From positions 36,355-100,354 of the IMG/VR virus record IMGVR_UViG_3300045988_001753: 64,000 nt of DNA; one strand, given 5' to 3'. The notes beneath the pieces were generated by a model, which was not told where the DNA came from, did no database searches, and worked only from the letters and a program-made list of their open reading frames with translations. Shown here in pieces: positions 61,870-62,251 of the stretch. The translations under genes were made by a program, and so were the position numbers. This DNA comes from a virus. The stretch's first letter is position 1, and the number at the start of each line of letters is the position of its first letter.

Positions 61870-62251
61870 GGGGCATGATTGGTTTTGATTACTGATTATT
61901 TGGTAAGAGAACATGCAAAGACTGATGGAAAGACATCAAAACAATAACTGGCAATACTTCTTATAGAGTTGCTGCCTAAATAGGCTGAGTAGCACTTACT
62001 TGGAAACAGAAAGGTGCAAAGCCTGAATGAAGACTAAGGCTGAGGGTCCGACTTTAAGAGCATTAATAGGCTGTGGTCTCGCAGAAGGTAACTCAACTTT
62101 TTCCTTGTTTATGGACAATAAAATAAGGTGGTGGAAATGCTGTAAATCCAGACAGACCCAGTGGGTAACTGACCACATTAAAAAGTAGTAAGCATGTGTA
62201 ATTCTTTTATTAAAGGTTGGTAAGACAGGGGTTCGAGTCCCCTATGCTCCA
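61870..62251 (+). ncRNA. ssrA: tmRNA (transfer-messenger RNA)
   Basis: 5' GGGGCAT pairs with 3' ATGCTCC (G3-U70 wobble), discriminator A, T arm AGGGG-TTCGAGT-CCCCT. The 5' GGGGCATGATTGGTTTTGA resembles the canonical GGGGCUGAUUCUGGAUUCGA. The internal tag frame GGC..GCC TAA (61950-61979) gives GNTSYRVAA. Length is ~382 nt. Confidence 0.8.

Follow-up and report, generated by a model that had tools for sequence, protein, structure and literature searches.

A one-piece transfer-messenger RNA gene with a divergent tag frame in a crAss-like phage

The tmRNA gene and its structural elements

The stretch of viral DNA considered here is 64,000 nt long and corresponds to positions 36,355–100,354 of the IMG/VR record IMGVR_UViG_3300045988_001753. 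It is referred to below as the window, and coordinates are those of the window, position 1 being its first letter. On its plus strand lies a gene for a transfer-messenger RNA (tmRNA) of the standard, one-piece form, which extends from G1 at 61870 to the discriminator A at 62251. ARAGORN, run on the window, calls this gene at 61870–62252 (+) as a one-piece tmRNA with the tag GNTSYRVAA*, and the Rfam model RF00023 matches it from end to end (1–374 of 374) with 64.3 bits, where the gathering score is 47; the E-value is 9e-23 when computed for the window and 6e-25 when computed locally. A reading made earlier from the sequence alone had proposed a tmRNA of one-piece size and form at this place, to be checked with these two tools. 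Both make the call, RF00023 above its threshold, and covariation in 34 homologs agrees with them. The same reading had alluded to crAss-like phages, and the best matches of the window do lie in the Crassvirales, namely bajarodcaudo virus 1 and cr85_1 (Steigviridae, Asinivirinae). The window is therefore that of a Steigviridae/Asinivirinae-like, crAss-like phage.

The gene can be assigned to the standard form since it matches RF00023 over the full model, while the model for permuted, two-piece tmRNAs (RF04321) gives only partial, sub-threshold matches in the window (26.4 and 16.1 bits) and the group I intron model (RF00028) gives none there. The order of the pieces is likewise standard, in that the piece with the 3′ acceptor strand and T arm is not located upstream of the piece with the 5′ acceptor strand and tag, and the T loop, TTCGAGT, is uninterrupted.

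The two ends of the RNA make up an intact, alanine-type tRNA-like domain. The 5′ strand of the acceptor stem, GGGGCAT (61870–61876, +), carries G3 and pairs with ATGCTCC (62244–62250), which is followed by the discriminator A (3′ strand and discriminator, 62244–62251, +). All seven pairs are invariant in 34 of 34 homologs, including a G-U at the third pair (G3-U70, the alanine identity pair). Directly 5′ of the 3′ acceptor strand is the T arm, AGGGG-TTCGAGT-CCCCT (62227–62243, +), in which 100% of alignment cells pair and four of the five pairs have changed on both sides; variants of its stem include AAGGG/CCCTT, TTGGG/CCCAA, TCCAG/CTGGA, TGGAG/CTCCA, and GAGGG/CCCTC. The acceptor pairing with its G-U wobble, the discriminator, and the T arm are the features from which the sequence-only reading had started, and each is present where it was placed. 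With a 7-bp acceptor stem, G3-U70, the discriminator A, a T arm whose loop is of the GGUUCGA type, and no anticodon arm, the domain has the expected makeup of a tmRNA. The bases that follow the discriminator are CAA (A-CAA after the acceptor stem), which means that CCA is not encoded.

Between the two halves is a start-less frame, GGC AAT ACT TCT TAT AGA GTT GCT GCC TAA (61950–61979, +), which had also been picked out earlier and which ARAGORN reads in the same way; it encodes (A)GNTSYRVAA and a stop. Upstream of the resume codon GGC, the bases U(−5), A(−4), and A(−3) (T76, A77, and A78 of the gene; 61945–61947, +) are invariant in 34 of 34 sequences. The first two correspond to U85 and A86 of the E. 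coli tmRNA, which set the reading frame there, A86 being the main determinant (PMC2481249). The window gene thus has a start-less frame, U(−5)A(−4), a stop, and a non-polar -AA C-terminus.

Variation among the tags of related genes is of the kind expected of a frame that is under coding constraint, as this one is within the crAss-like lineage. It includes synonymous changes (AAT/AAC and GCT/GCA), the conservative replacements R/K and V/M, a resume codon for either G or D, a stop of TAA or TGA, and one in-frame indel of a TCT codon, with no frameshifts. The resulting family of tags comprises GNTSYRVAA, DNTYRVAA, DNTSYRVAA, DNTYKVAA, GNTSYKVAA, and GTSYKMAA, and more distant members end in ...ALMAA, ...YAIAA, and ...YQAAA.

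Base pairing was examined in an alignment (A1) of 34 distinct one-piece sequences, including the spliced form of the cr128_1 gene described below. A blind, all-against-all scan for covariation proved too noisy and was replaced by a test of an explicit structure against slid partners and shuffles. Standard pairs occupy 89.2% of cells across the 34 sequences, versus 40–49% with the partners slid, and there are 26 pairs in which both sides have changed, versus 4 to 10 in the slid controls. None of 500 shuffles reached the observed values.

The 5′ strand of helix 2 (61889–61916, +; tmRNA positions 20–47, with H2a at 20–26, H2b at 30–41, and H2d at 42–47) pairs with 62192–62223 (+; tmRNA positions 323–354) in 92–96% of cells, and seven of its pairs in all have changed on both sides, among them five of seven in H2a and two of six in H2d. 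At the position of pseudoknot 1 (PK1) is a 5-bp hairpin, TGATG/CATCA, with a 6-nt loop (61923–61938, +; tmRNA 54–58/65–69), which is marked by one compensatory pair, A-U to U-A, in six sequences. A second PK1 stem was sought in vain: the loop, GAAAGA, has no covarying partner upstream or downstream, and only a 3–4-bp match to CUU(C) within the tag. The spacer between H2d and the resume codon is 33 nt long, as opposed to 50 nt in Bacteroides, where the second PK1 stem exists, and is therefore 17 nt shorter.

Within the tag frame, minimum free energy (MFE) folding predicts a hairpin (81–86/99–104), which was rejected because it is not kept by variants with a D-type tag. A small hairpin that resembles helix 5, GCC-TAAATA-GGC, holds the stop codon in its loop (61974–61985, +). 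Support for it is weak, since the letters of its stem are constant, its loop varies in length, and 88% of cells pair. It is followed by a pseudoknot at the PK2 position (61986–62017, +), with stem 1 formed by 117–122/128–133 and stem 2 by 123–127/144–148. Both stems covary, with U-A replaced by C-G in stem 1 of 14 sequences and G-C by U-A in stem 2 of cr128_1, and 97–98% of cells pair.

The central domain that follows (62018–62102, +; tmRNA positions 149–233), where PK2 and PK3 would lie, is unconserved among relatives and is aligned by Rfam with low posterior probability. At least four unrelated versions of its sequence occur among otherwise near-identical genes, and in cr106_1 about 80 nt of it are deleted. 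It behaves as a replaceable cassette, and the pattern looks like exchange by recombination. Conservation resumes in a 3′ structured domain (62103–62176, +) with hairpins at 234–241/252–259, 271–274/283–286, and 292–295/304–307. The first of these keeps its position while its sequence differs among relatives. In the second and third, four of four and three of four pairs, respectively, have changed on both sides. A candidate pseudoknot stem in the same domain (263–266/278–281) varies for the most part between G-C and G-U, and in one sequence a single pair has changed on both sides.

In sum, the gene combines an intact tRNA-like domain of the alanine type with helix 2, a signal that sets the frame, and a conserved, stop-terminated tag frame, and the joint occurrence of these elements far exceeds chance expectation.

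Neighbouring genes, related loci, and the host counterpart

About 30 tRNA genes were found by ARAGORN in the window phage. Most belong to an array of 26–27 genes on the minus strand (53184–57346), in which most amino acids are represented and one gene, for a tRNA-Met of 88 nt, has a long extra arm. Two others, tRNA-Arg genes with anticodons CCT (61370–61442) and TCT (61559–61633), precede the tmRNA on the same strand (61370–61633, +; ARAGORN and Rfam). The order of tRNA-Arg genes followed by tmRNA is maintained in most related loci, and the two kinds of gene are probably part of one transcript.

The tmRNA itself is part of an accessory insertion of ~1.05 kb (61640–62690, +, with approximate ends), as seen by comparison with bajarodcaudo virus 1, the closest complete relative. 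The insertion is absent from that phage, where the second tRNA-Arg gene almost abuts the ortholog of the open reading frame (ORF) at 62697–63596. It holds three genes. The first is an odd, 86-nt tRNA-like gene (61774–61859, +), located 10 nt upstream of the tmRNA and called as tRNA-Trp(CCA) by ARAGORN and as tRNA by Rfam (47.5 bits), with a weak anticodon stem and an unpaired extra region of ~21 nt. A counterpart accompanies the tmRNA in some relatives (two loci), and cr106_1 has an 88-nt “tRNA-Ile” at the equivalent site. The second gene is the tmRNA, and the third is a hydrophobic ORF of 131 residues (62286–62681, +) that starts ~35 nt after it. In most related loci, the hydrophobic ORF is found directly 3′ of the tmRNA, and in cr106_1 it is 1.3 kb farther off. 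Another tRNA-like gene, with a 6-nt anticodon loop, is located outside the insertion at 63855–63924 (+); ARAGORN reports it as “tRNA-?(tt)”, Rfam gives it 36.4 bits with permissive filters only, and it is conserved ~1.6 kb downstream of the tmRNA in six related loci.

Protein searches gave little in this neighborhood. No Pfam match was found for six neighbouring ORFs (60554–61315, 62217–62681, which includes the hydrophobic ORF, 62697–63596, and three smaller ones), and no PHROG match for the three that are specified. Searches by tblastn for SmpB, with the E. coli protein (checked against Pfam) and a gut-phage SmpB as queries, detected none in the window and none among the Crassvirales records of the phage collection; the 68 matches in that collection came from huge phages (Lak and others), prophage ends, and similar sources. 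In a separate case, an unrelated viral contig from IMG/VR (L102; 836–1228 and 5419–5835) encodes a tmRNA of one-piece form, whose tag, ANVELSTWTFEDAMAFAEGELEMAA, is long, together with a homolog of SmpB (tblastn, E = 5e-25). Within the phage collection, this SmpB is most closely related to those of huge phages of >600 kb.

A blastn search of 50,697 phage records revealed the tmRNA in three phages, cr106_1, Kehishuvirus tikkala, and cr128_1, and two exact-pattern scans of IMG/VR yielded 36 further one-piece copies of the family. The cr106_1 gene (NC_055871/MT774378, 29657–29960; Steigviridae, Mahstovirus) is annotated as “transfer-messenger RNA, SsrA”. It occupies the same site after tRNA-Arg genes and shares the acceptor stem, helix 2, the PK1-position hairpin, the post-tag pseudoknot, and the 3′ domain with the window gene, the alignable part, 64% of the RNA, being 91.6% identical. 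It differs in being ~80 nt shorter, owing to loss of the central domain, and in its tag, DNTYRVAA, which resumes on GAC (Asp) rather than GGC (Gly) and lacks the Ser codon. The same annotation is present in the RefSeq crAss-like genomes cr60_1, cr52_1, and cr114_1. In the cultured phage K. tikkala (OQ198717; locus L002, 3001–3320), the tmRNA region is annotated as two coding sequences (CDSs) for hypothetical proteins.

A second form of the gene is found in cr128_1 (MT774392; locus L003), where the tmRNA is unannotated in GenBank and a group I intron of ~870 nt (~3431–4299; RF00028, 86 bits) separates its exons at 3001–3430 and 4300–4318. The intron is inserted after the second base of the T loop, that is, at internucleotide position 3, a T-loop subsite reported only from tmRNA introns of the Bacteroidia (PMC11915505). 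On its opposite strand is an HNH/endonuclease-VII-like ORF (CDS 3645–4205). When joined, the exons restore the loop TTCGAAT on a T stem that covaries, which suggests that the gene has kept working in this phage.

A third form, in which the tmRNA gene is circularly permuted and two-piece, occurs in many gut viral contigs of 50–100 kb from IMG/VR (L039–L132) that are related to crAss-like phages of the Suoliviridae. Examples are found at 4918–5299 of L043 and at 12121–12567 of cr60_1 (NC_055891; L255). ARAGORN reports these genes as “tmRNA*”, and they match RF04321 with 48.6–54.9 bits (threshold 47) and not RF00023. Helices formed between the two pieces pair in 96.7% of cells, versus 36–60% with partners slid, and ten pairs have changed on both sides. 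Relatives of this type, such as those of cr60_1 and cr4_1, have the acceptor stem GGGGCAU/AUGCUCC, the context AUAACU before GGC AAU AC, and the tag start GNTSY, all as in the window gene. Of these likenesses, only the tag context is independent evidence, because the 5′ search pattern preselected the first 18 nt of the permuted genes. They differ from the window gene in having no element at all at the PK1 position and in their longer tags, GNTSYVTDYTRLVA, GNFYVTDYTRIAA, and similar. Eight of the contigs with permuted tmRNAs carry up to four Hatchet ribozymes (RF02678) each, and RAGATH-9, RAGATH-7, and RAGATH-7-associated RNAs are also present in such contigs; the Hatchet and RAGATH RNAs are within a few kb of the tmRNA.

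The cultured relatives of the window phage infect Bacteroides, and the window gene was compared with the tmRNA of that host. A scan of one genome per species identified 105 Bacteroidota tmRNAs with the tag GETNYALAA; in those Bacteroides genomes that were examined, the length is always 395 nt. The earlier reading had given the tags of this phylum as “GENNYALAA-like”, which is not the host tag; its remarks that the phage tag is of the same length and that R-V replaces A-L did hold. The host and phage tags have G1, T3, Y5, A8, and A9 in common, whereas E2, N4, A6, and L7 of the host are N, S, R, and V in the phage. The Bacteroides RNA is also one-piece, with G3-U70, the resume codon GGC after UAxCU, and a nine-codon tag. 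It differs in its helix 5, which is long, in having a genuine PK1 where the phage gene has a hairpin, and in its acceptor stem, which is GGGGUUG/CAGCUCC as opposed to GGGGCAU/AUGCUCC. The 3′ ends are GGGGTTCGAGTCCCCTATGCTCCA in the phage and GAGGGTTCGATTCCCTCCAGCTCCA in the host, the two RNAs agree at no more than 190 of 374 aligned bases (51%), and the G+C content is 45.8% in the host gene but 40.5% in that of the phage. The low identity, the different acceptor stem, and the lower G+C content argue that the phage gene is neither a recent capture from the host nor an attachment site for the host gene.

Probable function of the phage tmRNA

The window gene probably is a functional, phage-encoded tmRNA of the standard form that relies on SmpB, alanyl-tRNA synthetase, and proteases of the host. 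The RNA would be transcribed together with the upstream tRNAs and excised by host RNase P and 3′ processing enzymes. Host CCA-adding enzyme would complete the 3′ end, as CCA is not encoded, and the alanyl-tRNA synthetase of the host would then charge the RNA with alanine by way of G3-U70. Since no phage SmpB was detected, host SmpB would be required; together with EF-Tu, it may bring the tmRNA, in infected cells, to ribosomes that have stalled where an mRNA is broken or has no stop codon. Translation would restart on GGC and append (A)GNTSYRVAA, the ribosome would be freed at UAA, and the tagged fragment may pass to host proteases by means of its non-polar -VAA end, a putative degron. The likely benefit would be a pool of working ribosomes late in infection, alongside ~30 phage tRNA genes. 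Demand for tmRNA at that stage is plausible, given that host SsrA is strongly enriched late in lytic infection of Bacteroides fragilis (PMC13139388).

Several observations weigh against this reading. Of the pseudoknots PK1–PK4 that the sequence-only reading had expected along with helix 2, the post-tag pseudoknot and helix 2 were recovered, but PK1, the most important pseudoknot in E. coli, appears as no more than a 5-bp hairpin, and the middle third of the RNA is unconserved. The thermodynamic signal is modest, with an MFE of −104.7 kcal/mol and a z-score of −1.96. Neither a sigma-70-like promoter nor an intrinsic terminator was found by a scan that does not cover Bacteroides or crAss promoters. 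The gene is absent from the closest relative, bajarodcaudo virus 1, only its last ~100 nt are left in two related loci (L017, ~2620–2710, and L020, on the minus strand at ~2149–2250 in locus coordinates), and the 3′ end of the K. tikkala copy, GGGTTCGAGTCCAACCATCCCCA, can form neither the T stem nor the acceptor stem. Such absence, truncation, and breakage indicate that the tmRNA is accessory and dispensable. As to the pseudoknots, PK1 is typical of tmRNA but not universal, and in E. coli a hairpin can take its place; in the phage RNA, a tertiary pairing may conceivably occur there. PK2–PK4 are known to be replaceable.

The main rival to ribosome rescue accepts an active tmRNA and supposes that evolution has led its tag away from the degron of the host, such that tagged proteins are spared, degraded more slowly, or sent to another protease. 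In a variant of this view, the phage RNA acts mainly by competing for SmpB with the SsrA of the host, whose quality control would thereby be re-programmed. Such a role seems unlikely, although it is the strongest of the alternatives. The basic residue at −4 and the V or M at −3 are lineage-specific and conserved, and the resulting RVAA, KVAA, and KMAA ends replace the ALAA of the native Bacteroides tag, which acts as a very strong degron on a reporter in Bacteroides (bioRxiv 10.1101/2025.03.18.644028). In addition, the tmRNA of phage DS6A, which consists of a tRNA-like domain only, has been reported to resemble inhibitors of host tmRNA (PMC4131195, PMC11915505). The phage tag nevertheless retains the final AA and an aliphatic residue at −3, and neither the conservation of the reading frame nor the invariance of the UA that sets it would be needed in a pure competitor. 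Natural bacterial tags that end in -VAA, as in Caulobacter, are ClpXP substrates, and this too counts against a tag that spares proteins.

It is also conceivable, if quite improbable, that the tmRNA is a neutral passenger, or one in decay, which travels in a small cassette and makes no measurable contribution. The absence of the ~1-kb insertion from bajarodcaudo virus 1, the remnants in L017 and L020, and the broken copy in K. tikkala would fit such a history, but compensatory changes in many helices and a tag frame preserved across 34 distinct sequences from different genera are not expected from decay, and neutral decay is disfavoured on these grounds. Finally, the notion of a fragment of host ssrA retained as a phage attachment site (attP) for integration into the host tmRNA gene can draw on L017 and L020, which hold the 3′ ~100 nt only, and on the statement that tmRNA genes are common integration sites and that phages often carry 3′ fragments of them (PMC4383910), but was rejected in view of the full-length copy, its 51% identity to the Bacteroides tmRNA, its different 3′ end, and neighbouring ORFs of which none is integrase-like by Pfam or PHROG match.

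If the favoured explanation, a working tmRNA that serves ribosome rescue, is correct, its presence beside ~30 phage tRNAs suggests that a phage infecting Bacteroides is limited by the need to keep ribosomes free. Among the viruses of the human gut, the crAss-like phages are the most abundant, and to our knowledge their interplay with host translation has barely been studied. The conserved departure of the tag from GETNYALAA raises the testable question of whether proteins that bear it are handled by the same proteases and at the same rate. Furthermore, the natural variants, which include a hairpin for PK1, a central domain that is swappable or deleted, and intron-split and permuted genes, provide material for asking which parts of a tmRNA matter in vivo. 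A lineage-specific tag, a reduced PK1, a swappable middle, and three gene forms in one phage order merit both comparative and experimental study.

Comparison with other phage-borne tmRNAs

The identity of the gene is not new in itself, as standard tools find it and related RefSeq genomes already annotate it. In the literature that was searched, no discussion of Crassvirales tmRNA and no mention of GNTSYRVAA or DNTYRVAA came to light, and those supplements of the tmRNA database paper that were covered refer to neither phage nor crAss. More generally, tmRNA genes have been reported in ~2.3% of phage genomes, with 53 of 133 unique forms being two-piece (PMC9004378), and in the 2025 tmRNA database, RefSeq viruses account for 79 unique bacteriophage sequences (PMC11915505). 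A listing of 2014 already named mycobacteriophages and Bacillus phage G as carriers (PMC4131195).

Against this background, a broader proposal can be made, though only tentatively and with the odds somewhat against it. The crAss-like phages may maintain an old tmRNA lineage of their own, as opposed to recent captures from hosts, which has diversified into all three gene forms known for tmRNA, the standard, the group-I-intron-split, and the permuted two-piece form. Within it, the permuted form may represent an independent origin of tmRNA permutation. If so, that form would have arisen independently of the alpha- and beta-proteobacterial and cyanobacterial ones, and in viruses of hosts whose own tmRNA is one-piece. 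The family-specific tag ends, with R or K at −4, would likewise mark a tagging system tuned to the phage rather than a copy of that of the host.

Among known systems, parallels are offered by the mycobacteriophage Bxz1 group, Bacillus phage G, Methylophilales phage Melnitz, and phage DS6A, in all of which a phage-borne ssrA occurs without a phage smpB, as is the case here; the roles considered for these RNAs are the upkeep of translation under phage control and the tagging of proteins (PMC4131195, PMC9004378, PMC11915505). These phages belong to other hosts and lineages, and none is a member of the Crassvirales. The Melnitz tmRNA is two-piece, permuted, and of alphaproteobacterial origin, unlike the one-piece gene of the window. 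The DS6A RNA consists of the tRNA-like domain only and has no tag frame, whereas the window gene possesses both.

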